Shown: positions 16,711-49,815, counted from the first letter of the stretch. The stretch is 64,000 nt of DNA from Gemmatimonadota bacterium (GCA_025361465.1 JANYAG010000025.1:1820-65819); one strand, 5' to 3'. The notes: generated by a model not told the origin, from the letters alone. Program-made: numbers and translations.

Positions 16711-16744
16711 GGCGCCCCACGCCGTGTTCATGGCATGGGGCGCC
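16711..16744 (-). terminator. Hairpin immediately 3-prime of rnpB
   Basis: On the minus strand GGCGCCCCA-16 nt-TGGGGCGCC (9-bp perfect stem) directly follows the P1 3-prime strand. Confidence 0.5.
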
Positions 16745-17112
16745 CGGGTCAGACCGTAAGCCGAGTTCTGTTTCCCTCACGGGAGATGATCATCTGTCTG
16801 GGACAGTCGTCGCCGACTGCCTCGAGCAGCCTACCCGCGGCTCAAACGGTGCGGGCCGCACCTTGCCGCCTATTTGGCCTTGCTCCGACCGGGGGTTACC
16901 GTGCCCCCACGCTTACACGAGGGGCGGTGGGCTCTTACCCCACCGTTTCACCCTTACCTGTACCCTTTCGGGCCATCGGCGGTCTACTCTCTGTTGCCCT
17001 GTCCGTCACCTTGCGGTGCCCAGGCGTTACCTGGCGATCTGCCCTGTGGAGCTCGGACTTTCCTCGACCCCTCGTTGCCTCGGGGCCGCGATCATCGCGT
17101 CCAACCCGTCCC
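16741..17112 (-). ncRNA. rnpB: RNase P RNA, bacterial type A
   Basis: The minus strand reads GAGGAAAGTCCGAGCTCCACAGGGCAG..GCCAGGTAACGCCTGGG..ACAGAGAGTAGACCGCCGATGGCC..GGTAAGGGTGAAA..AGCAAGGCCAAATAGG..ACAGAACTCGGCTTAC. P1 pairs CGGGTTGGAC with GTCTGACCCG. Confidence 0.9.
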
Positions 17113-18095: not shown

Positions 18096-18647
18096 CTACG
18101 ATCGCAGTGCTGAGGCCTTCACCAGTGTGACCACCGGTACTCCTGTCGCCTCGATCGCCGCCCGGCCACCGGCTTCGCGATCAACTACTGCCAGCACGCC
18201 GAGCACGGTGCCGCCCTCGGCGCGCACCGCAGCGATCGCCTGGAGCGCCGAACCCCCCGAGGTGATCACGTCCTCGATCACCACCACGGCGTCACCGGCG
18301 GCGAAGTTCCCTTCAATGCGCCGACCCGTCCCGTGCTGCTTGGCTTCCTTGCGCACCGAAAAGGCGTCGATGGGGTCCATGTGTTGCGTGGCACTGGCCG
18401 CGGCAATCGCATATGCCACGGGGTCGGCGCCCATCGTGAGTCCCCCGACGCTGCGCGGAACCCAGCGCGCCGCACGAATCGCCTCGAGGCCGAGGCGGCC
18501 GATCAGCAACTGACCCTGGGCGGACATGGTGGTGCGACGGCAGTCGATGTACCAGTCGGATGTGGCGCCGGAGGCCAGCGTGAAGTCGCCGAATTCGACC
18601 GAGCGCTGGCGCAGCAGCCCGACGAGCGCGTCATGCCCCGAGAGCAC
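18096..18647 (-). CDS. pyrE: Orotate phosphoribosyltransferase
   Basis: 183 aa. FTLASGATSDWYIDCR and the VVVIEDVITSGGSAL PRPP-binding motif. Confidence 0.9.
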   Translation of the reverse strand: MLSGHDALVGLLRQRSVEFGDFTLASGATSDWYIDCRRTTMSAQGQLLIGRLGLEAIRAARWVPRSVGGLTMGADPVAYAIAAASATQHMDPIDAFSVRKEAKQHGTGRRIEGNFAAGDAVVVIEDVITSGGSALQAIAAVRAEGGTVLGVLAVVDREAGGRAAIEATGVPVVTLVKASALRS

Positions 18648-18649
18648 GG

Positions 18650-19543
18650 CTAGCTACGCTTGAAGATCGAGGAGAAGAAGCCCGGCTTCTCCGGCTCGGC
18701 AGCGGTTGCTGCCTCGGAGAACGCAATCGTGAAGTCCTGCACCGTCTTCCAGCGCTTGCCAAGGTCGCGTGCCAGCCCCTTCATCACCACCTCTTCCAGC
18801 CGGGGCGAGAACTTGGTGCCTCGGTCCGCCTGATTGAGCATGATCGGGTCCTGAGTCAGCAACTGCTGAAACAGCTCGCGGGGATTCTTCCCCGGGAAGG
18901 GAGTGACCTCCGTGAGCAACTGGTAGGCGATCACGGCCAGCGAGTAGACGTCAGCCTGTTCACCGACCAGTTCGCCGGACAGCGCCTCAGGGGCGACATA
19001 CTGGAGCGTGCCGACAAAGAACCCTGCCCGCGTCAACCGCTCTTCGGCCGGCAGTTCGGCATCGCGGGCGATGCCGAAATCGAGCAGTCGCGCCGTCTGG
19101 GTTGTGGGGTCGTACATGATGTTGGCGGGCTTCAGGTCGCGATGGATGATGCCCTTGCTGTGTGCTTCCTGAAGGGCGGCACCGATCTGCTGGACGATGT
19201 TTGCCGCGACCGGCGGGGTGAGTTTCCCGGCCTTGGCGATGAAGGTCTCCAGCGGTTCACCGTCGGCCCACTCCAGCGCCAGGTACTGCACCCCGTCAGC
19301 CTCACCGAACTCGAAGGTGCGCACGACATTAGGGTGGATCACCCGGGCGCCGAATTCGGCTTCCCGGAGAAACCGCTTGATGGCCACCGGGTCGGTGGCG
19401 AGGCGTGGCCGGAGCACCTTCAGCGCGACCTTTCCGCGTCCTGAGTGCTCAGCGAGATACACTTGGGCGGTGCCACCTTCGCCCACCGCCCGCCGAATGA
19501 TGTAGCCGGCGACGGTCTGTCCAATCAGGGAATCTTGTGCCAT
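18650..19543 (-). CDS. Hanks-type Ser/Thr protein kinase (catalytic domain only)
   Basis: GEGGTAQVY..ALKVL, HRDLKPAN, DFG, APE motifs. Start chosen at the ATG at 19543 (MAQDSLIG...); 19555 and 19585 are alternatives. Confidence 0.85.
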   Translation of the reverse strand: MAQDSLIGQTVAGYIIRRAVGEGGTAQVYLAEHSGRGKVALKVLRPRLATDPVAIKRFLREAEFGARVIHPNVVRTFEFGEADGVQYLALEWADGEPLETFIAKAGKLTPPVAANIVQQIGAALQEAHSKGIIHRDLKPANIMYDPTTQTARLLDFGIARDAELPAEERLTRAGFFVGTLQYVAPEALSGELVGEQADVYSLAVIAYQLLTEVTPFPGKNPRELFQQLLTQDPIMLNQADRGTKFSPRLEEVVMKGLARDLGKRWKTVQDFTIAFSEAATAAEPEKPGFFSSIFKRS

Positions 19544-23879: not shown

Positions 23880-26168
23880 TTATTCGACTCGCTCCTCGCT
23901 TCTCGCTGCTCCCTTCTCCATTCTCCCTTCCCTCACCCCCGGCCACCAGTTCCACTTGCCCGCGATCTGCATCAGGCTGGGGACCAGCACCATCCGGATC
24001 ACCGTGGCGTCGAGCAGTACGGCGACCGCCAGCCCGAATCCCACGAACTGCATGATCAGGGTGCGCGCAAAGGCGAACATGCCGAACACTGCAATCATGA
24101 TCAGCGCCGCGGAGGTGATCACGGACGCCGTGGCCGACAATCCTTCCCGCGTGGCGAGCGTGTTCTGGCCGGTGCGGTCATAGGCCTCCTTGATCCGCGA
24201 CAGCAGGAACACCTCGTAATCCATCGACAACCCGAACACCACCGCGAACACCACCACCGGCACGATCACGTAGATCGCCGAGGTCGGGCCGTCCAGACCG
24301 AAGAGAGCGCCGCCGATGCCGTGCTGGAACACCAGGACAATCAACCCGAACGTCGCGGCCACCGAGAGGGAGTTCATCACCACGGCCTTGATCGGCACTA
24401 GCACCGACTTGAAGACCAGCGCGAGCATCAGGGCGGTCACCCCCAGGATCATTGCCACGAGCAGCGGGAATCGCGCCAGCAGCAACTCCTGGAAGTCATA
24501 CGAGGTTGCCACGTAGCCACCGACCCGGACCGTCGCCCCGCGGAGCTGGCGAACGCTGCCGGAGCCGACGATCGTGCGGATGTCGCGCACCACCTTCATC
24601 GCGGTCGTCAGCGAGGTGGTGTCCGCGAGGATCACGTCGATCAGCGTGGTGCGGCCATCGCGCGCGAGATAGGCATCGAGGAAGTCGGGGTACTTGATCC
24701 GCACCGAGTCGGGTTCGCTGTAGAGCAGCGAGTACTCGAGGATCCCTGTACCCGGTGTCAGGTCAACCAGCGACTTGACGTCGCCGACACGCGGATCGGC
24801 CCGGAGAGTGTCGGAGAGATGCTTGAGCGCGCGGAGCCCGATGGCGCTGGTGGCCTCGACGCCCTCGGGAAACTCGATCACCAGGCGGACCGGCATGATG
24901 TAGCCAGACACTCCCATCCGCTCGAGCGTTGCCACCCCTGCCCCGGCCTCGGTTTCCGTTGGCCACCAGTTGCGGCTCGGCAGTCCGATGTGCAGGAAGA
25001 ACACCGGCACCGTCAGGACACCGATCGTGGCGCTGGCGATGCCAAGGGCGCGGTACGGATGACGTGAAAGGGTCCGGGCCCACTTCTCCCAGATCTTCGG
25101 CCGGTGATACCACGCCAGCCGTTGCGCCAGCCAGCGCGGCCGATCGATGGAGCGGCCGAGCAGCGAGAGGAGGGCCGGCAGCAATGTGGTCGACAGCAGA
25201 ACCGCGACCGCGACCACGGCGAGTCCTGCCAGTCCCACACTGCGCGTCTCGGAGAGCGGCGTGAAGACGAGGGCGGCAAATCCCACCACCACCGTCATGC
25301 CAGAGGTCATCACCGCCTGCCCCGCCGTCGCGAACGTCCGCACCGCGGCTTCGGATGGGCGCAGTCCCTGGCTGAGTTCCTCGCGGAAGCGGGTCACCAC
25401 CAGGAGGGAGTAATCGATGCCAACGCCCAGGCCGATCATCGACACGATGTTCAGGGAGAAGACCGACATCGAGGTGTAGAGTGCCATGACGCCCACCAGC
25501 GCCAGGGCGATCGTGATCGCCATGACGCCCACCACGATCGGGAGCAACGCCGCCACCAGCGCTCCGAAGGCGAGCACCAGCACGACGAGGGTGATCGGGA
25601 CCAGCTTTCGCTCGTTGCGGTGGGCATCCTCCGCGCTCACCCCGCGGATGTCGAGGTCCAACGGTGCCCGACCGGTCACCAGCACACTGTAGGCTTCCCG
25701 GTCAGGGAAACGGCGCAGGACCCCGGCAAAAGCCTGCCGCATCGGGACCACCACGGTCCCGACGGAGTCGTGCTGCACATTCAGTGCGACAAGGAAGAAG
25801 GTGGTGCGGCCGTCGCGCGCGAGGAAGGTAGAATCATGGGTGCTGCGATACGACACGACACTTCGGACCCAGGGCTTGGCTTTCGCGACCGCGATCAGGG
25901 AATCGAGCAGTTTGCCCGGAACCCCCTCGGTCACCCGTTCGGGCGCCTGCAACGTGACGGCAAAGAACTCCGAGACCGGTCCCTGGAATCGGTTCGTCAG
26001 CAGCGAGTCTGCGAGGCGGGCCTCGGTCATCACGTCGGCGGCACCGCGTATCTCAAGCCGTCCGACCGTCTTCTCGGCATAACTTGCCGCAAAGAGGCCG
26101 ATCACGGCCCATGCCGCGATGATGACCCATCGCCATCGGACGAGTGTCCGCCCCAGGGAATCCAGCAC
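23880..26168 (-). CDS. MMPL/RND-superfamily membrane transporter
   Basis: Two 6-TM bundles with large loops, MMPL-like repeats. GTG start at 26168 (VLDSLGRTLVRWRW...). The last ~18 codons are encoded by a heptad repeat. Confidence 0.85.
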   Translation of the reverse strand: MLDSLGRTLVRWRWVIIAAWAVIGLFAASYAEKTVGRLEIRGAADVMTEARLADSLLTNRFQGPVSEFFAVTLQAPERVTEGVPGKLLDSLIAVAKAKPWVRSVVSYRSTHDSTFLARDGRTTFFLVALNVQHDSVGTVVVPMRQAFAGVLRRFPDREAYSVLVTGRAPLDLDIRGVSAEDAHRNERKLVPITLVVLVLAFGALVAALLPIVVGVMAITIALALVGVMALYTSMSVFSLNIVSMIGLGVGIDYSLLVVTRFREELSQGLRPSEAAVRTFATAGQAVMTSGMTVVVGFAALVFTPLSETRSVGLAGLAVVAVAVLLSTTLLPALLSLLGRSIDRPRWLAQRLAWYHRPKIWEKWARTLSRHPYRALGIASATIGVLTVPVFFLHIGLPSRNWWPTETEAGAGVATLERMGVSGYIMPVRLVIEFPEGVEATSAIGLRALKHLSDTLRADPRVGDVKSLVDLTPGTGILEYSLLYSEPDSVRIKYPDFLDAYLARDGRTTLIDVILADTTSLTTAMKVVRDIRTIVGSGSVRQLRGATVRVGGYVATSYDFQELLLARFPLLVAMILGVTALMLALVFKSVLVPIKAVVMNSLSVAATFGLIVLVFQHGIGGALFGLDGPTSAIYVIVPVVVFAVVFGLSMDYEVFLLSRIKEAYDRTGQNTLATREGLSATASVITSAALIMIAVFGMFAFARTLIMQFVGFGLAVAVLLDATVIRMVLVPSLMQIAGKWNWWPGVREGRMEKGAARSEERVE
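23886..23934 (-). repeat. Heptad array of the GCGAGAA family (copy 2, seven units)
   Basis: The + strand reads GACTCGC TCCTCGC TTCTCGC TGCTCCC TTCTCCA TTCTCCC TTCCCTC. The minus strand reads GAGGGAA GGGAGAA TGGAGAA GGGAGCA GCGAGAA GCGAGGA GCGAGTC. Confidence 0.8.
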
Positions 26169-32684: not shown

Positions 32685-33092
32685 CTACTTCTTGATCGGC
32701 CGGAAGAGCCAGCTCGCCAGGGACTTGCCGCGATCCTCACACGAATCTGTTTGCACCTCGAGCCAGTACCCGCCGCGCTCACCGCGCACCACGTAGGTTC
32801 CCTCGCGCTGGACGTTGTTCTCGTCAAGGCAACCCTGGTCGGAATACGTCAGGAGGCCATCCTTCGATCGCATCCTGCCACTGAAGGTCCCCTCGGCCAT
32901 CGTGATCACGAAGATGGTGCTGTTCTTCAGTTCGAAAGGGATCGGCGGGAATGTCTTGGCGGTGTCGCGTGCCTCGATGGTGTACTTCCCCGGCCGGAAC
33001 GCCGGCGGGGTTCCGCCGCTGCCACCAGCTTGGGCCGCGAGAGGCCATGCGACGAGGGTGGCGGTGGCGAGGACGAGCCAGCGAGGGTTCAT
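32685..33092 (-). CDS. Hypothetical secreted protein (135 aa)
   Basis: ATG at 33092 gives the signal MNPRWLVLATATLVAWPLAAQA. No family recognised. Confidence 0.5.
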   Translation of the reverse strand: MNPRWLVLATATLVAWPLAAQAGGSGGTPPAFRPGKYTIEARDTAKTFPPIPFELKNSTIFVITMAEGTFSGRMRSKDGLLTYSDQGCLDENNVQREGTYVVRGERGGYWLEVQTDSCEDRGKSLASWLFRPIKK

Positions 33093-33192
33093 CGGTCGAT
33101 CCCGGACTGAGGTTGGCGGCGTTGTTCGGATGAAGGTACGCGCAACCCGGTGGGAAGGTGGGCTGGACTTAAATCCAAATTCATAGCACAAA

Positions 33193-33221
33193 TTGACAAA
33201 ACACCAGCCGGCCGGTAGCAT
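33193..33221 (+). promoter_or_regulatory. Candidate suf operon promoter (TTGACA-17 nt-TAGCAT), near-leaderless
   Basis: Consensus -35 at 33193-98. The -10-like TAGCAT at 33216-21 ends only 9 nt before the sufR ATG (33231). No SD sequence seen. Confidence 0.4.
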
Positions 33222-33230
33222 TCGCCCCCA

Positions 33231-33910
33231 ATGACGTCCTCGCCGCCCTTCCGCTCCGATGAATCTGCGACCCCAGCTGGGCACCGGGGGCCGCGGGGTG
33301 ACCTCCTGTTGCATTTGAAGCGGGAAGGGAAGGCTACCGTGCGGGAGCTGGCGGCAGCTCTGGGCTATTCCATCACAGCTATCCGCCATCATATCAAGGA
33401 GTTAGAGGTCGAGGGTGTGGTGACGTTCGACCGGACCCATCATGGGGTCGGGGCTCCGTCACACGCCTACCGGCTTTCACCGGAAGGGCAGGCGCTCTTT
33501 CCTGACCGGTATGAGCGGACCGTTGCCGACCTCCTCGACCATGTGGTGGCCAGCCAGGGCCGCGCCACGGCGGTCTCGCTCCTGGAGACACACTACGTCG
33601 CCCTGCAGCAGCGCATCGTGGCCGAAACCGCCCACCTCGCGCCCGATCGCCGTGGCGAAGCCGTCGCCCGCATCCTCGCCGCGGAAGGGTACATGGCCAC
33701 CTGGAGCGGGGCAGAAAGCGGCGGGATGCTCACCGAGCACAACTGCCCGCACCAGCTGGTGGCTCAACGGTTTCCCGAGATCTGCGTGGCCGAAGAGACC
33801 TTCCTCACGCAGGTGTTCCGTGGCCCGGTCGCGCGACAGTCGCGCATTGCCGATGGCTGTGGCACCTGCAGTTATCACGTTCCGACCGCGCCGGGGGCTG
33901 GGGAGAACCA

Positions 33911-33914
<4 letters not shown>
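33231..33914 (+). CDS. Winged-helix (ArsR/DeoR-like) regulator with C-terminal Cys cluster, SufR-like
   Basis: 227 aa. HTH ([30 protein letters not shown]). C-terminal CPHQ...C..(..)CGTC cysteines. ATGA-coupled to sufB. Confidence 0.65.
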
Positions 33915-35344
<1,430 letters not shown>

Positions 35345-35350
35345 ACCAGG

Positions 35351-35439
35351 AGTGACTGGTGAGTGGTGACCGGTGAACGAGGTGTTCACCAGGGCCAGTT
35401 CACCGTTCACCGTTCACCGTTCACCGTTCACAACTCACT
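35351..35439 (+). repeat. Inverted heptanucleotide arrays (GGTGANN)x4 / (GTTCACC)x6 in the sufB-sufC spacer
   Basis: AGTGACT GGTGAGT GGTGACC GGTGAAC gaggt GTTCACC agggcca GTTCACC x4 (perfect, 35398-35425) GTTCACA ACTCACT. Confidence 0.9.
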
Positions 35440-35455
35440 TTTTGGACCGGATTGA

Positions 35456-36219
<764 letters not shown>

Positions 36220-36223
<4 letters not shown>

Positions 36224-37551
36224 CCACTGCCACGCGGCCGGCGCGCAGCCCGAACGAGCCCCTGGTTCCCTTCGCGGAACTCGTCGCTGAAGGTGCCCGC
36301 GCCGGCGCCCCCGCATGGCTGGCCACCTTTCGTCGTGGCAGTGCCGAACGGTTTACTGCTGTCGGTCTGCCGACGTCGAAGGATGAGGACTGGCGCTTCA
36401 CCCCAGTGCAGGGACTCGCGCGGGAGAACCTCGGCGTCGTACGGCGCCCCGCCCCCGTTGCCCCCGAGGCGCTGAAGCCGTTCCTGCTCGGCAGCGAACG
36501 CGGGGCCCTCGTGGTGGTAATCGATGGTCGCTTCGAGGCGTCCTTGTCTCATCTCCCGGTGCTCCCCACCGGAGCCCGGATCATGTCGCTCGCGGCGGCG
36601 ATCACGGAAGGAATTCCCGAGGTCGAGGCGCACCTCGGGCGGTATGCGACGCCTGACGTGACCCCATTTGCGGCCCTGAACGGCGCCGTCTTCGCTGATG
36701 GACTCTTCCTGCACCTCGCCGCAGGCATCGCGATCGAACTGCCGATCCAGGTCCTCCATGTCAGCACCGGCGCGGTCCCGGTCGTCGCGCCGAGGAGCCT
36801 GCTCCTGGTTGGTCGCGGCGCGAGCGTGACGGTGGTTGAGAGCTTCGCCAGTGTCGGCGGGACGACGGGCTTCACCAACGGCGTCACCGAAATCGTCCTC
36901 GGCCGGAACGCCCGGTGCGAACATCTGCGGGTGCAGCGCGAAGGTGCCGAGGCGTGGCATATCGGCTTGACCGAGGTGTCGCAGGAGCGCGACTCGCATT
37001 ACCGCTCGTTTACCCTTGCCCTCGGTGCCAAGCTCTCTCGACACGATCTTCGGGCCCGGCTCGGGGCCGAGAACGTCGAGACGCTGCTCTACGGACTCTA
37101 CCTGGGCCGCAACGAGCAGTTGCACGACAACCATACCGCGATCTTCCACGACCAACCGCACTGCAATTCGTGGGAGGTCTACAAGGGTGTGCTGACTGAT
37201 CGGTCGCACGCCGTATTCAACGGCAAGGTGATCGTCCAGCCCGTCGCACAGAAGACCGACGCCAAGCAGACCAACCGCAACCTGCTGCTCTCCGAGACGG
37301 CCAGGGTCGACACCAAGCCGCAGCTCGAGATCTTTGCCGACGACGTCAAGTGCACCCACGGTGCCACGGTCGGCAAGATGGATGAGCAGCAGCGCTACTA
37401 CCTGAAGACGCGCGGCATCGCCGGCCGGGTGGCAGAAGGGGTGCTGATCTGGGCATTCACGGCCGAGGTCCTTGCGGAAGTGACGGATCCGGGGATCCGC
37501 GAGACGCTGGAGAAGCTGGTGCGGGCCGAACTCGAGACGATGATCGGGTGA
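36220..37551 (+). CDS. sufD: Fe-S cluster assembly protein SufD
   Basis: ATG at 36220 overlaps the sufC stop (ATGA). C-terminal SufBD beta-helix region (..NRNLLLSETARVDTKPQLEIFADDVKCTHGAT..). Confidence 0.9.
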
Positions 37552-37555
37552 GAAG

Positions 37556-38764
37556 ATGACCGCACTGGCATCGTCACTGCGAGGCACGTTTCCGGTACTC
37601 GGCACCCTGTCGCGCGGCCATCCGATGATCTATCTCGACAGTGCGGCAACCGCCCAGAAGCCACAGGCGGTGATCGACGCCATGACCCGGTTCTACACCC
37701 AGGACTACGGCACCATCCATCGCGGAGTCTACCAGGTCAGCGAGCGCGCAACCCTGGCATGGGATGCCGCGCGGGAACGAGTGGCTCATTTCCTGACGGC
37801 GGCGACGGCCGACGAAGTGGTCTTTGTCCGCGGCACCACCGAAGCCATCAACCTGGTCGCCGAGTCGTTCCTCAAGCCGCGGATCAAGCCTGGCGCGACC
37901 GTCCTTGTGACGGAGATGGAGCACCACGCCAACATCGTTCCCTGGCAACTGGCCGGGGCAAAGACCGTCCCGATCCCCATTTCCGACACTGGCGAACTGG
38001 ACCTGGTTGCCGCGGAGCGACTGCTCGCGGCCGGATGCGAGATGCTGGCGGTCTGCCACGTCTCCAACGCCCTCGGCACCATCAACCCCGTTGTCGAGCT
38101 CTGCCGAATGGCGAAGCGACACGGTGTGCCGGTGCTCATTGACGGTGCGCAGGCCGCGCCGCACCTGTGCATTGATGTGCAGGCCATCGGCTGCGATTTC
38201 TACTGTTTCTCGGGCCACAAGGTGTACGGCCCGACCGGTATCGGCGCGCTCTGGGCAAAGCGGGAACACCTCGCGAAGATGCCGCCCTATCAGGGCGGCG
38301 GGGACATGATCGACCTGGTCACCTTCGAGGGCACCACCTACGCCCCGGCCCCCCGGAAGTTCGAGGCCGGCACGCCGCACATTGCCGGCGCGATTGGACT
38401 CGAGGCCGCGCTGCGGTGGCTCGACGCGCTGGACCGCGTCGCGCTCCGTCGCGAAGAAGAGGAGTTGCTCGCGTTTGGCACCGGGCTGCTCGCCGAGGTT
38501 CCTGGGCTGCGGCTGATTGGTTCCGCGCGGGAGAAGGCTGGCATTCTCACGTTCGTGATCGAGGGCGTCCACCCGCACGACATCGCGTCGATCCTCGACC
38601 ACGACGGCGTCTGCATCCGGGCCGGCCATCACTGCACCCAACCGCTGCACCGCCGGCTCGGCGTCCAATCCACCGCCCGTGCTTCCCTTGCCCTCTACAG
38701 CACGCGCGACGACCTCGAGAAGCTCGCGCACGGCCTCGTCAAGATCCAGCGGATGTTCAACTGA
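37556..38764 (+). CDS. sufS: Cysteine desulfurase SufS (class II)
   Basis: 402 aa. PLP-lysine region FSGHKVYGPTGIG. Active-site loop RAGHHCTQPL. Confidence 0.9.
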   Translation: MTALASSLRGTFPVLGTLSRGHPMIYLDSAATAQKPQAVIDAMTRFYTQDYGTIHRGVYQVSERATLAWDAARERVAHFLTAATADEVVFVRGTTEAINLVAESFLKPRIKPGATVLVTEMEHHANIVPWQLAGAKTVPIPISDTGELDLVAAERLLAAGCEMLAVCHVSNALGTINPVVELCRMAKRHGVPVLIDGAQAAPHLCIDVQAIGCDFYCFSGHKVYGPTGIGALWAKREHLAKMPPYQGGGDMIDLVTFEGTTYAPAPRKFEAGTPHIAGAIGLEAALRWLDALDRVALRREEEELLAFGTGLLAEVPGLRLIGSAREKAGILTFVIEGVHPHDIASILDHDGVCIRAGHHCTQPLHRRLGVQSTARASLALYSTRDDLEKLAHGLVKIQRMFN

Positions 38765-39219
38765 TGGCGACCTCCGACGAGATGTACCAGGCCGTGATCA
38801 TCGAGCACGCACGCTCGCCGCGGAACTACAAGCCGCTCGTCACACCAACGCATCACTGCGACGGCCGAAATCCACTCTGCGGCGATGAGGTTTCCCTTGA
38901 CCTCACGGTGGATGCCGAGGGGCGCATCACGGATATCGGATTCCAGGGGCAGGGCTGTGCCATTTCGAAGGCATCCGCCTCGATGATGACTGCGGCGATC
39001 AAGGGAAAGACCGTACCTGAAGCACGGGAGCTTTTCGAACGCTTTCATGCGTTGGTCACGGGTGAGCCGACCGACGAGAAGGCCCTTGGTAAGCTGGTGG
39101 CCTTCAAGGGGGTTGCTGCGTACCCGATGCGGGTCAAGTGCGCCACCATGGGGTGGCATGTGATGATGGAAGCACTGGATGAGAACCGAGAGAAACGACC
39201 TAATGGAAGTGAACAGTGA
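38764..39219 (+). CDS. sufU: SufU/IscU-like sulfur acceptor scaffold
   Basis: ATG at 38764 overlaps the sufS stop (TGATG). NPLCGD, GQGCAIS, VKCATMGW motifs. Confidence 0.85.
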   Translation: MATSDEMYQAVIIEHARSPRNYKPLVTPTHHCDGRNPLCGDEVSLDLTVDAEGRITDIGFQGQGCAISKASASMMTAAIKGKTVPEARELFERFHALVTGEPTDEKALGKLVAFKGVAAYPMRVKCATMGWHVMMEALDENREKRPNGSEQ

Positions 39220-39274
39220 ACGGTGACTCGTGGTCATCCTCACCAATCACCAATCACCAATCACCGTTCACTAC
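39208..39274 (+). repeat. Inverted heptanucleotide arrays (NGTGANN)x4 / (TCACCAA)x3-TCACCGT after sufU
   Basis: AGTGAAC AGTGAAC GGTGACT CGTGGTC atcc TCACCAA TCACCAA TCACCAA TCACCGT TCACTAC. The sufU stop (39217-19) lies inside the left array. Confidence 0.9.
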
Positions 39275-39303
39275 TTCTTCCCGACCCCCTGGAGATTGCT
39301 GCG

Positions 39304-39723
39304 ATGCCTTACCCTGAGATGATGATCCAGCCGATGCGCGACGAAGTCACCCGCCTCGGTGTCCAGGAGCTTCGCACGGTCGCCGAGGTGGATGCGGCGC
39401 TGGGCGACATCAGCGAATCAACGATGGTGTTCGTCAACTCCGTCTGCGGCTGTGCAGCGGGGGGTGCCCGTCCGGCCCTGACGATGGCGCTTGGCCATTC
39501 CAGGTTGCCGGCGCGGACGTACAGTGTCTTCGCTGGTCAGGATCTTGACGCCACTGCCCGGGCTCGGTCGTACTTCGGAGAATACCAGCCGTCTTCACCC
39601 TCAGTGGCCCTGCTCAAGGGCGGTGAGGTGGTGGCGTTCGTGCATCGCCACCAGATCGAGGGACGGTCCCCCGACCAGATCGCGGCGGACCTGGTCAGTG
39701 CCTTCGACAGCTACTGCGGATGA
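39304..39723 (+). CDS. Bacilliredoxin (BrxA/BrxB, DUF1094 family)
   Basis: ATG at 39304. VFVNSVCGCAAGGARP (CGC redox motif). 139 aa, typical family size. Confidence 0.8.
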   Translation: MPYPEMMIQPMRDEVTRLGVQELRTVAEVDAALGDISESTMVFVNSVCGCAAGGARPALTMALGHSRLPARTYSVFAGQDLDATARARSYFGEYQPSSPSVALLKGGEVVAFVHRHQIEGRSPDQIAADLVSAFDSYCG

Positions 39724-39995
39724 GTGGGCACGTCTTCCACCCCGGGCACGACGCGCTCCATGGCGTGACCGTGGTCGTCGACGCGACCGATGGCAGGACC
39801 CTGGTGGGCCGGTGGCACGAGCAGACCCATCGCGGGGTCCTGCTCCACGATGTCGCAGTCCATGACCCCGCGGCGTCGGCCACTCCCAAAGAGGAGTGGT
39901 TGGTCAAACTACGCAAATTTGGCATCGCGGTTGACCTGAAGCACGCGATCATCCCTGCCAGTCAGCTCCTGGGCATCCGCCGGCTGGTGGAATAG
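39720..39995 (+). CDS. Hypothetical small protein (91 aa), last gene of the suf transcription unit
   Basis: ATGA overlap with the bacilliredoxin stop. High GC3. No family recognised. Confidence 0.55.
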   Translation: MSGHVFHPGHDALHGVTVVVDATDGRTLVGRWHEQTHRGVLLHDVAVHDPAASATPKEEWLVKLRKFGIAVDLKHAIIPASQLLGIRRLVE

Positions 39996-40115
39996 CCCCT
40001 GATCCGGGACGTCTCCCGCACGTTCCGGTCTCCTGCGATACATTCGATCCGCTGAAACCGGCCGGGCCACCTTGGAGTATGTGGCTGCGGCCATTTCCCA
40101 CGGAGCGATCCTGCC

Positions 40116-41066
40116 ATGAATCCAGCTGCTGTCCGCGTGGACCAGGTCACCAAGCGCTTTGCCGGCCATACCGCGGTGAAGTCGCTCTCCTTCGAGGTTC
40201 CCGCCGGGGGGATCTTCGGGCTGCTCGGCCCCAACGGGGCGGGAAAGTCGACGACGATCCGGATGATGATGGACATCATCGAACCGGACGAGGGCAAGGT
40301 GGTGCTGTTCGGGCTGGAGAAGTCGCCGCGCGACATCTCCGAACGACTTGGCTATCTCCCCGAGGAGCGAGGTCTCTACAAGAAGATGAAGGTGCTCGAG
40401 CACCTCGCCTTTCTTGGCGAGGTGAAGGGCCTCGGTGTCGCCGACGCCAAGCGACGCGCCGGGCAGTGGCTCGAGCGACTCGGGCTGCAGGACTGGGCGC
40501 AGAAGAAGGTCGAAGATCTCTCGAAGGGGATGCAGCAGAAGGTCCAGTTTGCCGGAACCCTGCTTCATGATCCTGACCTGGTGATTCTCGACGAACCGTT
40601 TTCTGGTCTCGACCCGGTGAATGCCCAGATGATGAAGGACATCGTCGTGGAGATCGCCAAGAGCGGGCGAACCGTTCTCTTCTCGACCCACATCATGGAG
40701 CAGGCCGAGAAGATGTGTGATCGCATTGTCATCATCGCGCGTGGCGAGAAGGTGGTGGACGGATCGGTTTCGCAAGTGAAGGCTGAGTTTGGCGGCAACC
40801 ACATCGCGCTCGGGTTCACGCACGACAAGGAGAACGCGGCGAGGATTCTCGCTGATCGGCGGCTGGTGGCCACCCTTGATGATTACGGCGCGAGCGCCGA
40901 GCTGGAGCTTGCTGCGGGCGCCTCGCCTGATGCGCTGCTCGGCGCCCTGGTACGGGAAGGGGTGGGATTGAATCGTTTCGAAGTGGTGGAGCCGTCGCTC
41001 CAGTCGATCTTCATTGCCAAGGTTGGCAACGCCGCCGTCGTGCCGGCGATCACGGAGGCCGCGTGA
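40116..41066 (+). CDS. ABC transporter ATP-binding protein (ABC-2/NatA type)
   Basis: 316 aa. Walker A GPNGAGKST, LSKGMQQK signature, Walker B LVILDEPFSGLD. Confidence 0.9.
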   Translation: MNPAAVRVDQVTKRFAGHTAVKSLSFEVPAGGIFGLLGPNGAGKSTTIRMMMDIIEPDEGKVVLFGLEKSPRDISERLGYLPEERGLYKKMKVLEHLAFLGEVKGLGVADAKRRAGQWLERLGLQDWAQKKVEDLSKGMQQKVQFAGTLLHDPDLVILDEPFSGLDPVNAQMMKDIVVEIAKSGRTVLFSTHIMEQAEKMCDRIVIIARGEKVVDGSVSQVKAEFGGNHIALGFTHDKENAARILADRRLVATLDDYGASAELELAAGASPDALLGALVREGVGLNRFEVVEPSLQSIFIAKVGNAAVVPAITEAA

Positions 41067-42379
41067 ACAAGACTCTAGCCGTGATCCGTCGCGAACTGGT
41101 GGCACGTGTTCGCACCCGGGCCTTCCTGATCTCGACCTTGATTCTCCCGATCCTCATGGTGTTCGTGGCCGTGGTACCGGCCCTGATGATGCGCGGCGGC
41201 AGCAGGACGATGCAGATCGCCATGGTCGATGGCACCGGTGATAGCCTTGGAAGCCGCATAGAATCAGCTCTCGCCGGCGAGAAGCTCTCGCGCGACCCTG
41301 GCGCACCGACGCGATATGCCCTGCACCGGTTCGTGGCTGCCGGCCGCGTGGCGGTGCTTCGTGATTCCCTGGTTGCACTCACCGGCGTCAGCCGTGAGCA
41401 GCACCCGCAGTCATTTGACGGCGTGCTCGTGGTGACCGATTCCACCATCGCGACGGGCAAGGTGGACTACCTTGGCACCAACACCAGCTCGTTTGAATCG
41501 ATGGGTCAACTGGAAGGCACCATCTCGAAGGTGCTTGTCCAGATGCGCCTCGCACATTCTGGCCTCGACCCCGCGATCGTGGCGAGCGCGATCAGGCCGA
41601 TCAATCTCAACGCCACCAAGGTCAGCGATGGAAAGGCGACCGGGCAGAGCGGCGTCCAGTCGTTTGCGATTGCCTACTTCATGGCCTTCCTTCTGTATCT
41701 CAGCGTGGTGCTGTACGGCCAGCAGACGATGACGTCGGTGATCGAGGAGAAGACTTCGCGCATCATGGAAGTGCTTGCCTCCTCGATGCGGCCCTTTCAG
41801 ATGCTGCTCGGCAAAGTGCTCGGTGTCGGACTCACCGGCTTGCTGCAAATGACGATCTGGGGCGGAACGTACTACCTGGTCACGAGTCAGCGTGGACGCC
41901 TGGCGGGGTTGTTCGGGCTGAGTGCTGACGCGATGCAATCGCTTCCGATTCCCGCCATGCCGACCGACCTGCTGGTGGTGTTCCTCGTCTACTTCATGCT
42001 CGGCTTCCTGTTGTTCGGCGCCCTGTATGCTGCGATCGGATCCATCTGCAACACCATCCAGGAGACGCAACAGTACGCCGTAGCGGTCACGATGGTGTTG
42101 ATGCTGGGCTTCTTCAGTGTGTTCGCGGTGATGAAGGATCCCACCGGCGGACTCGGAGTCACGCTTTCCTTTGTGCCGTTCTTCTCGCAACTCGTGATGC
42201 CGGTTCGCTGGTCGCTCGCGGCCGTGTCCCCCATCGAGCTGGCTGGATCACTTGCCATTGGCATCGCGACACTGCTTGGCACGACGTGGCTGGCCGGACG
42301 GATCTATCGGACCGGCATCCTGATGTACGGCAAGAAGCCGACGTTTGGGGAAGTGTTCCGGTGGATCAGGCAAGGATAA
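41063..42379 (+). CDS. ABC-2 family transporter permease (NatB-like)
   Basis: GTGA overlap with the ATPase gene. 438 aa. N-terminal TM, large extracytoplasmic loop, then about 5 C-terminal TMs. Confidence 0.8.
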   Translation: MNKTLAVIRRELVARVRTRAFLISTLILPILMVFVAVVPALMMRGGSRTMQIAMVDGTGDSLGSRIESALAGEKLSRDPGAPTRYALHRFVAAGRVAVLRDSLVALTGVSREQHPQSFDGVLVVTDSTIATGKVDYLGTNTSSFESMGQLEGTISKVLVQMRLAHSGLDPAIVASAIRPINLNATKVSDGKATGQSGVQSFAIAYFMAFLLYLSVVLYGQQTMTSVIEEKTSRIMEVLASSMRPFQMLLGKVLGVGLTGLLQMTIWGGTYYLVTSQRGRLAGLFGLSADAMQSLPIPAMPTDLLVVFLVYFMLGFLLFGALYAAIGSICNTIQETQQYAVAVTMVLMLGFFSVFAVMKDPTGGLGVTLSFVPFFSQLVMPVRWSLAAVSPIELAGSLAIGIATLLGTTWLAGRIYRTGILMYGKKPTFGEVFRWIRQG

Positions 42380-42382
42380 GAG

Positions 42383-42437
42383 AAGGGGAAGCGAGAGGCG
42401 AGAAGCGAGGGGCGCTGCGGAAGGCGCCCCTTCGCTT
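42383..42437 (+). repeat. Purine-rich GAAGGGGA + GARGCGA heptads (copy 3) ending in a terminator-like hairpin
   Basis: GAAGGGGA then GAAGCGA GAGGCGA GAAGCGA GGGGCGC. AAGCGAGGGGCGC (42403-15) pairs with GCGCCCCTTCGCTT (42424-37) with a 1-nt bulge. Starts 3 nt after the TAA stop. Confidence 0.75.
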
Positions 42438-42619
42438 GAATGAGTGAAGCACAGCAGCCTGCCCCTAACGTGTTGCTAGCCCAGCCGACCACCGCTACAC
42501 TAATTACCGCTGACAGTATGACGATATAAGTCGTTTATTTAAAACAAATTACACACCAACGATGCTGTCATGTTTCCAGGGTGGACCGTGTAGCGTAGAT
42601 TGGCCATCGCTTCTCGTGC

Positions 42620-42635
42620 TGTTTCACGTGAAACC
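42620..42635. promoter_or_regulatory. parS centromere-like site
   Basis: TGTTTCACGTGAAACC matches 15/16 of the consensus TGTTNCACGTGAAACA, 92 nt upstream of parA. Confidence 0.85.
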
Positions 42636-42726
42636 ACCCAAACCACCACTGTTGCAGCTATCGCCCAGTCCGCGTTCGGTCTATCATTGAGCAGGAGTCC
42701 TTTCTCTCCCTCAATTTCGACATACT

Positions 42727-43530
42727 ATGGCCCGCACCATCGCGATTGCCAACCAGAAAGGCGGGGTGGGGAAGACCACCACCGCCGTCAACCTTGCCGC
42801 GTCGCTGGCCATCGCCGAGCGGCGGACCCTGCTGATCGATGCCGACCCCCAAGGGAACGCCACCTCCGGGGTGGGGATCGAGAAGGGTGCGGTTGATCGC
42901 TCGCTCTACGATGTGATCATCAACGCCACGCCGATGCGGGAAGTGATCCGCCCAGACCCACAGCTTCCCTTCCTGCATGTGATTCCCGCCACCCAGGATC
43001 TGATCGGGGCGGAAATCGAGCTGGTGGCGATCGGGGAGCGCGAGACGATCCTGCGGCGCGCGCTGTCCGAGATCCAGAATGACTACGACTACATCCTGAT
43101 CGACTGCCCGCCGTCGCTCGGCCTCGTCACCCTGAACGTCCTGACTGCGGCCGATGGCGTCCTGATTCCGATCCAGTGCGAGTACTATGCGTTGGAAGGT
43201 ATCTCTCAGCTAATCAACACGATACGCATTGTCCAACAGAATTTCAACCCCGAATTTCAGATCGACGGCGTGCTGCTCACGATGTACGACGCCCGCCTGA
43301 ATCTCTCCAAGCAGGTCGTCAGCGAGGCGCGCGAGTACTTCGGCGCCACCGTCTTCCGGACCGTCATTCCGCGAAACGTCCGGCTGGCGGAGGCTCCCTC
43401 GTTTGGCAAGCCGATTCTCCTCTATGACGTCCAGTCGGTTGGGGCGAAGAGTTATCTGGCGGTGGCCCAGGAACTGATCAAGCGGTCCGAGGCGCTCGGC
43501 GAACACAAGGGCGGGGGGAACGTCCCATGA
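42727..43530 (+). CDS. parA: Chromosome partitioning ATPase ParA/Soj
   Basis: 267 aa. Deviant Walker A NQKGGVGKTT. Confidence 0.95.
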   Translation: MARTIAIANQKGGVGKTTTAVNLAASLAIAERRTLLIDADPQGNATSGVGIEKGAVDRSLYDVIINATPMREVIRPDPQLPFLHVIPATQDLIGAEIELVAIGERETILRRALSEIQNDYDYILIDCPPSLGLVTLNVLTAADGVLIPIQCEYYALEGISQLINTIRIVQQNFNPEFQIDGVLLTMYDARLNLSKQVVSEAREYFGATVFRTVIPRNVRLAEAPSFGKPILLYDVQSVGAKSYLAVAQELIKRSEALGEHKGGGNVP

Positions 43531-44421: not shown

Positions 44422-45189
44422 ATGAGATCGGTCGCGCTGCACGCCATTGCCGAGTATCTCGATGGTTTCCTCAAGACGGCAACGACCCCCGAGTACGACG
44501 GCGCCCTCAACGGACTGCAGGTCAGCAACCGCGGCGACGTGACCGGCTTCGTGACGGCAGTTGATGCGTCGCAGCAGACCATCGACCGTGTTGCCAGCGA
44601 ATGTGATCCTGGCACACTGCTGCTGGTGCACCATGGTCTCTTCTGGGACGGCAACCAGCCGATGACTGGCCGGCGCTACCGGCGCATCAAGGCGTTGATG
44701 GACCACGACATTGCCGTCTACTCCTCACATCTCCCGCTTGATGTGCACCCTGAGGTTGGCAACAACGCGGTGCTTGCCCGGATGCTTGGTATCGTCGATG
44801 CCGTGCCGTTCGACACGTACCAGGGAATGCCCCTTGGCGCCGCCGGGCCACTCATCATGCCGCGCAACGTTCTGGTTGATCGTCTGGCCGAACTGCTCAA
44901 CACCCGAGTGCATCTCATTCCCGGCGGACCCGAAACCACCACGCGGGTTGGCATCATCACGGGTGGCGCCGGTAGCCGCGTGTCGGAAGCCTCGGCCGCT
45001 GGGCTCGACACCTTCATCACCGGAGAAGGCGCTCATCACACCGCGTTCGATGCACTCGAGTCCGGCATCAACCTGATCTATGCCGGCCATTACGCCACCG
45101 AGACCGTCGGCATCAAGGCGCTCGGCGAGCTTCTCGCGGAGCAATTCGGGCTGCGGTGTGTGTTTCATGATCATCCGACGGGGATGTGA
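44422..45189 (+). CDS. Nif3-like dinuclear metal centre protein (YbgI/GTP cyclohydrolase 1 type 2 homolog)
   Basis: ATG at 44422. ..LLLVHHGLFW.. and ..YSSHLPLDVHPEVGNN.. motifs. Confidence 0.85.
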   Translation: MRSVALHAIAEYLDGFLKTATTPEYDGALNGLQVSNRGDVTGFVTAVDASQQTIDRVASECDPGTLLLVHHGLFWDGNQPMTGRRYRRIKALMDHDIAVYSSHLPLDVHPEVGNNAVLARMLGIVDAVPFDTYQGMPLGAAGPLIMPRNVLVDRLAELLNTRVHLIPGGPETTTRVGIITGGAGSRVSEASAAGLDTFITGEGAHHTAFDALESGINLIYAGHYATETVGIKALGELLAEQFGLRCVFHDHPTGM

Positions 45190-45225
45190 ACCGTGGTCGA
45201 TGGTGGATGATTGATGAGTGACGCG
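45184..45225 (+). repeat. Short heptad array related to the GGTGA family
   Basis: ATGTGAA CCGTGGT CGATGGT GGATGAT TGATGAG TGACGCG, with R-T-G at fixed positions 3-5 (ACG in the last unit). Spans the Nif3 stop and the next gene's start. Confidence 0.55.
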
Positions 45226-49794: not shown

Positions 49795-49815
49795 GGTTGA
49801 TGGTGATTGGTAACG
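49795..49815 (+). repeat. Three-unit heptad array (GGTNANN)
   Basis: GGTTGAT GGTGATT GGTAACG starts 9 nt after the stop at 49784-86. Confidence 0.45.

Follow-up and report, generated by a model that had tools for sequence, protein, structure and literature searches.

The spacer between sufB and sufC in a 64,000-nt stretch of DNA from an uncultured Gemmatimonadales metagenome-assembled genome (MAG), hereafter the window, is filled by two inverted arrays of 7-nt repeats (35351-35439, counted from the first letter of the window) that can pair into a long hairpin. The host was placed through its SufB homologs, among the matches listed, and the 64 kb of the window are the host sequence covered here. 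The element is very probably one member of a dispersed family of palindromes built from heptameric simple sequence repeats (SSRs), and it is not a suf-specific device. We favour, with a probability of about one half, the reading that it is a genome-specific heptad palindrome, similar to short tandemly repeated repetitive (STRR) sequences and resembling the paired GGGAATC arrays of Xanthomonas, with an action like that of repetitive extragenic palindromic (REP) elements. By analogy with the latter, it may also influence the expression of the suf genes themselves, a proposal that we make rather tentatively.

Structure of the sufB-sufC element

35351-35378, + strand: left, G-rich arm AGTGACT GGTGAGT GGTGACC GGTGAAC, four RGTGAnn units
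35379-35397, + strand: centre or loop, consisting of GAGGT, an orphan GTTCACC (35384-35390) and AGGGCCA
35398-35439, + strand: right, C-rich arm, four perfect copies of GTTCACC (35398-35425), GTTCACA and ACTCACT (Tandem Repeats Finder, TRF; inverted pairs)
35440-35455, + strand: 16-nt tail TTTTGGACCGGATTGA from the hairpin to the sufC ATG, with a U-run and the presumed ribosome-binding region

The reading of 35351-35439 in the initial annotation of the window matches the sequence letter for letter. Six bases lie between the sufB stop codon (TAG, 35342-35344) and the first heptad, and TTTTTGGACCGGATTGA separates the last heptad, which ends at 35439, from the sufC ATG, with TTTTT directly after ACTCACT. 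In the left arm the core RGTGA is constant and positions 6-7 are variable; the right arm comprises six nnTCACy-type units, four of them perfect, and TRF reports 35398-35431 as a period-7 repeat of 4.9 copies with 100% matches. Positions 2-5 are identical in 21 out of 21 units when this element and a second RGTGAnn element at the end of sufU are taken together.

The initial annotation had also proposed a hairpin pairing in several 7-nt registers, and this is borne out for at least three registers by the alternative arm pairings (I1-I3) that an inverted-repeat search found at 7-nt shifts, each of 27-29 nt and 81-83% complementary, as well as by a degenerate RNAfold ensemble. As RNA, the spacer has a predicted folding energy between -45 and -47 kcal/mol, with z between -2.6 and -2.9. 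The minimum free energy (MFE) structure accounts for just 1.4% of the ensemble, which has a nearly open centroid; therefore, the modelled sufB-sufC hairpin is register-degenerate.

The arrays are non-random, as had been asserted for the tandem heptads. The window contains 5 period-7 arrays against 0.42 +/- 0.70 expected from 40 dinucleotide shuffles, its longest perfect period-7 run is 27 against no more than 11 in the shuffles, and no excess over dinucleotide shuffles was found in the window at periods 5, 6, 8 and 9. Similarly, GGTGAnnGGTGA with at most one mismatch matches 20 times against 5.8 expected. A chance origin is ruled out by the period-7 excess and these match counts.

Several known types of element were considered and rejected. 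A known RNA family does not account for the arrays: neither element reaches the gathering score of any Rfam family, RNase P is the only Rfam family found in the window, and the best local match at the element, to a miRNA model, is due to chance (E = 0.45; 22.8 bits, the gathering score being 67). The stems at the elements measure 25-35 bp and a U5 run lies behind the window copy; a canonical intrinsic terminator was discarded because the intrinsic-terminator scan was negative for both elements and the orthologs do not conserve the U-run. An integron attC site does not apply since the suf operon is not a cassette array, and the attC cores, which we take to be RYYYAAC/GTTRRRY, do not fit GGTGAAC/GTTCACC. 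Finally, G-quadruplexes are disfavoured as a general explanation because the units lack G3 tracts, GGG being absent from the units RGTGAnn, GGAGAAC, GCGAGnn, GGCTnAT and ATCGATn.

Orthologous spacers keep the hairpin and change the unit

Exact-protein look-ups identified seven close relatives with sufB 89-92% identical at the nucleotide level (L001, L002, L003, L086, L087, L088 and L209); genes in the fetched loci were called by a crude heuristic on GC content at third codon positions (GC3). Period-7 runs are present in the sufB-sufC spacer of all seven, and a strong hairpin in the six whose spacer was fully read, L001 being cut within the right arm; the z-scores of the relatives' spacer folds range from -2 to -8.5. 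The GTGA core is common to the window and L001, and the 16-nt tail of the window is homologous to that of L001. The remaining relatives carry other units: GGAGAAC/GTTCTCC in L003, GGAGAAC and CGAGAAC in L087, GAGAGAC-type units in L002 and L209, GCGAGnA/CTCGCTC in L086 and, in L088, a single run of ATCGATn, a unit that is itself palindromic. The distal flank CTCGAATCTCAAC... is common to L002, L087 and L209; therefore, the spacer is orthologous and the arrays have changed in place. The initial annotation had looked to the orthologous spacers of close relatives as a test of its proposal, and its expectation holds for the heptad hairpins, which are present, but not for the units, which differ, leaving the proposal unrefuted.

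Across six aligned orthologs the shared helix is paired in 84.8% of cells, against 74.8% in shuffled alignments and 44-58% in slid-partner controls, and 11 of its 22 pairs have changed on both sides against 5.8 expected, values that 0 of 500 shuffles reach; the weight of these figures for our reading is lowered by their origin in six sequences, with non-independent units within each array and a structure derived from that same alignment. In the window, the T of GGTGA is matched by an A in every right-arm unit. In the more distant Gemmatimonadales L004, L007, L009 and L011, sufB and sufC overlap and have no spacer, and the element is thus read as an insertion into a once-coupled junction.

A dispersed family with genome-specific units

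Besides the sufB-sufC element, the following arrays were recorded in the window:

39208-39228, + strand: left arm of the second element, AGTGAAC AGTGAAC GGTGACT (inverted-repeat search)
39240-39274, + strand: right arm of the second element, a CCTCACC-type start, AATCACC three times and GTTCACT (TRF, 100% matches)
42380-42437, + strand: GCGAGnn array of a second family, GAGAAGG GGAAGCG AGAGGCG AGAAGCG AGGGGCG (TRF, 42380-42414)
23883-23930, - strand: GCGAGnn/GGGAGnn array, single-armed (TRF)
45194-45217, + strand: weak TGA-rich heptads TGGTCGA TGGTGGA TGATTGA TGA, a doubtful member unreported by TRF
49795-49815, + strand: GGTTGAT GGTGATT GGTAACG, a degenerate and doubtful member, 9 nt past a stop codon

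A given genome employs its own unit repeatedly, at the ends of several genes, with GTGA at two loci and GCGAG at two loci in the window, GGAGAAC at five intergenic sites in 21 kb of L003 and GGCTGAT/GGCTAAT at three sites in 21 kb of L004. Two or three unit families coexist within one genome. In 481 kb of Gemmatimonadota loci we counted 37 arrays of period 7, compared with 12 of period 6, 13 of period 8 and 4 of period 9; many Gemmatimonadales loci have no period-7 arrays and the trait is therefore clade-limited. Presence or absence varies among close relatives at the region upstream of sufR, at the beta-lactamase/FeS-assembly junction and at sufB-sufC, and heptad elements also follow unrelated genes (ABC permease, MMPL, NIF3 and beta-lactamase). 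L086 carries both families of the window with their positions swapped. One of its copies, an 80-nt GGTGAnn hairpin, is situated not behind a gene but in a region of divergent promoters, just upstream of the putative suf promoter; the window has no insert at this site. The elements at 35351-35439, 39208-39274 and L086 1108-1175 share the heptad core alone, their loops and flanks being unrelated, which makes whole-element transposition unlikely. A miniature inverted-repeat transposable element (MITE), or any other whole-element mobility, was rejected on these differing interiors and on filled and empty sites without target-site duplication.

The second element, 39208-39274, folds with z -4.3 and its outermost units are exactly complementary (AGTGAAC/GTTCACT). 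The sufU stop codon (TGA, 39217-39219) falls inside its second heptad, the first two heptads encoding the last four codons and the stop, and the translation of sufU terminates in ...RPNGSEQ. Therefore, the recurrence "after sufU" described in the initial annotation is real as an element, but not wholly after the gene. The sufU end of L003 is likewise overrun, by GGAGAAC units.

The GCGAGnn array at 42380 begins 1 nt past the stop of an ABC-2 permease gene, and its last units form a 14-bp hairpin (42403-42437, z -3.2). The array at 23883-23930 is wedged between the convergent stops of polA (23877-79) and of an MMPL transporter gene (23880-82), whose open reading frame (ORF) ends in ...GVREGRMEKGAARSEERVE where its L004 ortholog ends in ...GVRDRR; the about 13 extra C-terminal residues relative to L004 are encoded by the GCGAGnn/GGGAGnn heptads, the repeat having thus turned into coding sequence. 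The arrays at 42380-42414 and 23883-23930 were absent from the initial annotation, whose statement that the architecture recurs after other genes is supported at the sufU and ABC-2 permease ends. On the other hand, the "shorter versions" that it placed at 45184-45225 and 49795-49815 proved to be weak, single-armed and without statistical support; the heptads at 45194-45217 lie within a 21-nt spacer and reach into the next start codon. In L003, the region 18441-18790 has six GGAGAAC units at an ABC-2 permease stop and TCCGCCC/TCTGTTC runs 220 nt downstream, the runs enclosing a segment of lower GC that immediately precedes parA; in the window, the corresponding region 42380-42727, which is orthologous, consists of the GCGAGnn array and an AT-richer segment.

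Placement at stop codons and polarity

By the heuristic gene calls, the G-rich runs begin between -5 and +21 nt from a stop codon. The association with stop codons suggested from the outset is clear in the window, where arrays lie 7 nt after sufB, over the sufU stop and 1 nt after the permease stop. All of the inverted pairs (about 13 of about 13) have the G-rich arm first and the C-rich arm second, none being reversed, and a palindrome with this G-then-C polarity reads alike on both strands.

A metagenome scan for four tandem TCACCnn units retrieved at least 120 stretches on contigs of 33-73% GC; therefore, GGTGAnn arrays are not special to the host lineage. Most of the matches listed are single-armed, and L149, L121, L091, L096 and L143 show exactly the window architecture. 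Among the 52 loci with sufficient flanking sequence, the stop of a long ORF lies within 40 nt upstream in 14 cases on the GGTGA strand and in 2 on the TCACC strand (p = 0.004). In L094, L103, L104, L110, L119, L137, L155 and L163 the TCACCnn run stands directly behind a different, non-complementary 7- or 8-nt run, with units such as GAATCGG, GGGAAAT, TAATTGG, GAAGGCG and GGGAGATC, and mixed-unit repeat blocks seem to be common in uncultured bacteria.

The sufB-sufC junction in other phyla

The sufB-sufC spacers of 82 loci from many phyla, among the matches listed, were compared. Spacers of at most 20 nt occur at 19 loci, those of 21-59 nt at 16 and those of more than 200 nt at 9; the other 38 measure 60-200 nt, and 17 of these 38 contain a hairpin with z <= -3, built as a heptad array, a hexad array or a long REP-like palindrome. 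The helix typically begins a few nt past the stop and ends about 0-35 nt (mostly 16-27) before the start. Two Verrucomicrobia (L036 11429-11528 and L041 11429-11524) have period-6 inverted arrays, CGTCCT/GAGGAC, with the pyrimidine arm first, and the spacers of several other phyla, in L043, L055, L056, L067, L070, L071 and L084, contain long non-periodic palindromes with z of -3 to -10. The sufB-sufC junction thus looks like a cross-phylum hotspot for hairpin inserts, which fits a permissive landing site tolerating self-folding inserts only and fits a recurrent use of stem-loops equally well. In some MAGs labelled as other phyla (L016, Thermoanaerobaculia; L029, L031, L036 and others) SufB is 77-80% identical to the Gemmatimonadales protein, which could reflect very high conservation, lateral transfer or mis-binning; L016 has GCGAGAT heptad hairpins after sufB.

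Three explanations of the polarity, namely avoidance of Rho, stop codons on the G-rich strand and likeness to Shine-Dalgarno sequences, each fit part of the data only. Rho avoidance is weakened by the Verrucomicrobia hexads, which put the pyrimidine arm first at the same junction. A "safety net" of stops in all frames is not general, because the TGA/TAA triplets of GGTGAnn, GGCTGAT and ATCGATG are missing from GGAGAAC, GCGAGnn and GAGAGAC. Shine-Dalgarno mimicry fits GGTGA, GGAG and GAGG but not GGCTGAT, GCTATCA or ATCGATG, and was likewise set aside.

Proposed mechanism and alternative explanations

We propose that the runs would lengthen and shorten through slipped-strand mispairing, that a new unit variant could then sweep through a run, and that the complementarity of the arms would be maintained through selection or intrastrand template switching, a requirement for pairing in any register being expected to freeze the core and let the linkers drift. 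The right arm, with four perfect copies next to a left arm that has diverged further, seems to have expanded recently and one-sidedly. The spacer would be co-transcribed with the operon, and the transcript is predicted to fold into a long register-degenerate stem-loop reaching from 1-7 nt past the sufB stop to about 16 nt before sufC, which would loop out the approximately 90 inserted nt. Such a stem-loop could serve as a REP-like barrier to 3'-exonucleases for the sufR-sufB segment and might partly hold back transcription or translation into sufCDSU. The roles put forward in the initial annotation, as a stabiliser or a processing site of the mRNA, are likewise plausible.

A number of observations weigh against this proposal. 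Sense and antisense strands fold equally well (the sense strand better in 6 of 14 cases) and RNA is therefore not singled out over DNA; selection at the RNA level, as deduced from G-U asymmetry, was rejected since the sense strand has no advantage. The covariation would also be expected from a DNA process copying one arm from the other, and local slippage alone does not account for the reuse of one core at several loci whose loops are unrelated. The U5 run is absent from L002, L003, L086, L087, L088 and L209. Single-armed arrays exist (23883-23930, L003 4121-4174 and most metagenome matches), so the hairpin is not obligatory for the family. The G-then-C polarity is unexplained by a plain hairpin requirement, and the palindromes without heptads that other phyla have between sufB and sufC do not show it. 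Besides, co-transcription, folding in vivo and an effect on the sufB:sufC ratio are what we infer from the sequence.

Many of these facts could be accommodated by near-neutral or selfish repeat DNA arising by slippage and spread, from which selection filters harmful forms and leaves the least disruptive shape, that is, a self-folding insert at a stop codon with the next ribosome-binding site free. The presence or absence of arrays at several sites between close relatives, the rapid turnover of unit and copy number, the spilling of arrays into ORF ends, a fold energy without strand bias, the occupation of the sufB-sufC junction by any kind of palindrome in other phyla and the tests in Xanthomonas, which showed no function (PMC4692102), all speak for such an origin. 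We nonetheless consider it less likely than our own reading, given a hairpin kept with compensatory change in six orthologs, a core invariant in 21 of 21 units whose linkers vary, and the strict polarity together with the sense-strand bias; these facts of pairing, core and polarity point to constraint, though a filter could yield some of them. Control specific to suf, by an internal terminator or attenuator or by an Fe-S- or iron-responsive RNA setting the SufB:SufC ratio, could draw on the UUUUU directly behind the last heptad of the window and on the many phyla with a hairpin at exactly this junction. It is largely refuted by the distribution of the elements, and we give it very little credence: the same element type follows the ABC permease, MMPL, NIF3 and beta-lactamase genes, orthologs lack the U-run, the terminator scan was negative and Rfam gave no match, and relatives with overlapping sufB and sufC manage without the element. 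The Suf complex has the stoichiometry SufBC2D, which further disfavours a lowering of SufC.

The fixed core with free linkers, the genome-specific units common to unlinked loci with unrelated loops and the orientation bias relative to genes are also the features of a periodic binding platform, in which a trans-acting reader (an oligonucleotide-binding (OB)-fold or Csp-like, HutP- or TRAP-like or RAYT-like protein, RAYT being the REP-associated tyrosine transposases, or an RNA) would recognise the 5-nt core and co-evolve in specificity with the arrays, one core at many loci per genome being the outcome. Precedents are CspB, which binds heptamer repeats with one protein per heptamer (reviewed in PMC4679880), and ToxR, which reads TTTTGAT heptads in DNA (bioRxiv 10.1101/2021.05.14.444153). 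Such a platform appears unlikely to us: we identified no candidate for the reader, a single genome has two or three families of units, the paired form buries the cores in duplex, GGTGAnn arrays in organisms of 33-73% GC are hard to tie to one reader, and the core-versus-linker pattern follows equally from register-degenerate pairing. Even less probable is an element acting as DNA, whether as a cruciform or single-stranded hairpin for replication pausing, recombination or nucleoid-protein binding or as the target of an HUH enzyme specific for hairpins, in the way that RAYTs act on REPs. Equal folding of both strands, the strand-symmetric polarity and the L086 copy in a divergent promoter region agree with it; a purely DNA role does not predict the sense-strand bias of single-armed arrays after stops, and palindromes with short loops (here 5-11 nt) and imperfect arms extrude poorly. 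At long odds, it could be envisaged that the arrays are the visible half of a two-part system with a reader or writer (a protein, an RNA guide or an enzyme adding templated 7-nt repeats to the ends of cistrons) of programmable 5-nt specificity. If this were true, drift of specificity between genomes, for example from GGAGA to GGTGA, would drag all arrays along; the shared core despite unrelated loops, the invariant core with free linkers and the G-first polarity at stops would be explained, and the explanation would extend to the heptamers of cyanobacteria, Xanthomonas and many uncultured bacteria.

Relation to known repeats

Heptamer repeats between genes have been on record since about 1990 and, to our knowledge, neither a function nor a reason for their 7-nt period has been established. 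The initial annotation knew of no description of this family; this has to be corrected, as intergenic heptameric repeats are already described (PMC4692102, PMC4679880, PMC6749651). Xanthomonas has about 185 (GGGANTN)n / GGGAATC arrays, about 90% of them intergenic and at a mean of 28 nt after the upstream ORF, with 70-75 loci at which two convergent arrays could pair into a stem-loop; sister species have them between the same genes, with extensive variation in length and sequence, and tests revealed no function (Rehm et al. 2015, PMC4692102). The Gemmatimonadales elements share with them a tandem 7-nt unit with a conserved core and variable positions, an intergenic location near the upstream stop and the convergence of two arrays, G-rich and then its complement. 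They differ in the host phylum, in the RGTGAnn and GCGAGnn units without G3 tracts, to which the G-quadruplex idea is not transferable, and in the swapping of the unit itself between genomes at about 10% nucleotide divergence.

Further cases are the heptamers of Calothrix and the GGGGAYT heptamers of Nostoc, one of whose arrays is inside an operon (pecE-pecF; PMC4692102), the TAACTGA heptamers just upstream of start codons in Beggiatoaceae (PMC4679880) and the GATAGRA heptamers of Chloroflexus (PMC6749651). Period 7, dispersed and intergenic occurrence, several unit families per genome and location within some operons are common to STRR, TAACTGA and GATAGRA repeats and to our arrays; unlike the Gemmatimonadales pairs, those repeats are mostly direct and in a single orientation, and their unit sequences are unrelated. 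For the cyanobacterial STRRs in particular, the host here is a Gemmatimonadales, and its units bear no relation to the heptamers of cyanobacteria cited in PMC4692102. That paper also cites an over-representation of heptamers among long bacterial SSRs, reported in 2007 and tentatively ascribed to the DNA stretch that polymerase holds. No literature linking Gemmatimonadota to such repeats was found.

Like REPs and bacterial interspersed mosaic elements (BIMEs; PMC2817692), the heptad hairpins are genome-specific extragenic palindromes after stops and in operons, with turnover at orthologous sites. A REP, unlike them, is a single palindrome of 20-40 nt with a conserved head that is copied whole, whereas the Gemmatimonadales copies share a 5-nt core at period 7, their arms are tandem arrays and their loops are unrelated. 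In E. coli, REP325 has a dual effect, attenuation of the gene that follows it and stabilisation of the mRNA that precedes it (bioRxiv 10.64898/2026.03.23.713779). No RAYT was present among the few window ORFs scanned, in which no search was aimed at RAYTs.

HutP, which the initial annotation had invoked as a precedent, and TRAP are parallels in that they read short RNA motifs at a constant spacing, which for HutP is period 7. Their targets are UAG or GAG triplets in single-stranded leader RNA upstream of a terminator, whereas the heptads here are base-paired and after genes; RGUGAnn contains no UAG/GAG triplets and its units are buried in duplex, so the analogy does not hold, no search for a HutP homolog having been made. 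ToxR binds TTTTGAT heptads in the DNA of the ctxAB promoter (bioRxiv 10.1101/2021.05.14.444153). This is, as here, a tandem array, whose copy number matters and which the protein reads as DNA; as described there, it is unlike the Gemmatimonadales family in being promoter-located, single-orientation, AT-rich and restricted to one locus.

To the known heptamers, our arrays add a unit that turns over at an orthologous site while the hairpin persists, a strict polarity and units free of G-tracts. The Gemmatimonadales clade offers a natural comparative series in which the same junction is empty or filled and the unit changes while period, polarity and pairing are kept, and which sets the conserved features (period 7, self-complementarity and a G-rich arm at the stop) apart from the non-conserved ones (sequence and G-quadruplex potential). 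For annotation, such arrays matter since they supply stop codons, add a few residues to ORFs, cause breaks in assemblies and lengthen the spacers within operons.

The suf operon and other features of the window

The gene order is sufR-B-[hairpin]-C-D-S-U-[hairpin]-PF06491, with Pfam support for the sufR-like HTH regulator, SufB, SufC, SufD, SufS, SufU and the PF06491 protein.

33231-33914, + strand: sufR-like winged-helix regulator, first gene of the operon (Pfam HTH_24/HTH_5)
33911-35344, + strand: sufB (Pfam SUFBD_core, 1.7e-74), stop TAG at 35342-35344
35456-36223, + strand: sufC (Pfam ABC_tran), ATG at 35456
38764-39219, + strand: sufU (Pfam NifU_N), TGA at 39217-39219

The end of the sufR-like gene and the start of sufB overlap by 4 nt. 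The window SufB is 100% identical to P0001 and 85-98% identical to Gemmatimonadales SufB proteins, and a protein identical to its SufC is present on a JGI contig. The promoter-like TTGACA-17-TAGCAT at 33193-33221, upstream of sufR, is the sole + strand site of this kind in 33000-43000; both hairpin elements are therefore probably inside one suf transcript. It is contained in TAGCACAAATTGACAAAAC, which is conserved (window 33140-33221; L086 1095-1250) and may be a suf promoter or operator.

Downstream of the PF06491 gene, a 30-nt unit is repeated 1.9 times (77% matches) at 39749-39805, inside a small ORF (39720-39995). On the - strand, 16741-17108 is a full-length bacterial RNase P RNA of class A (288 bits).

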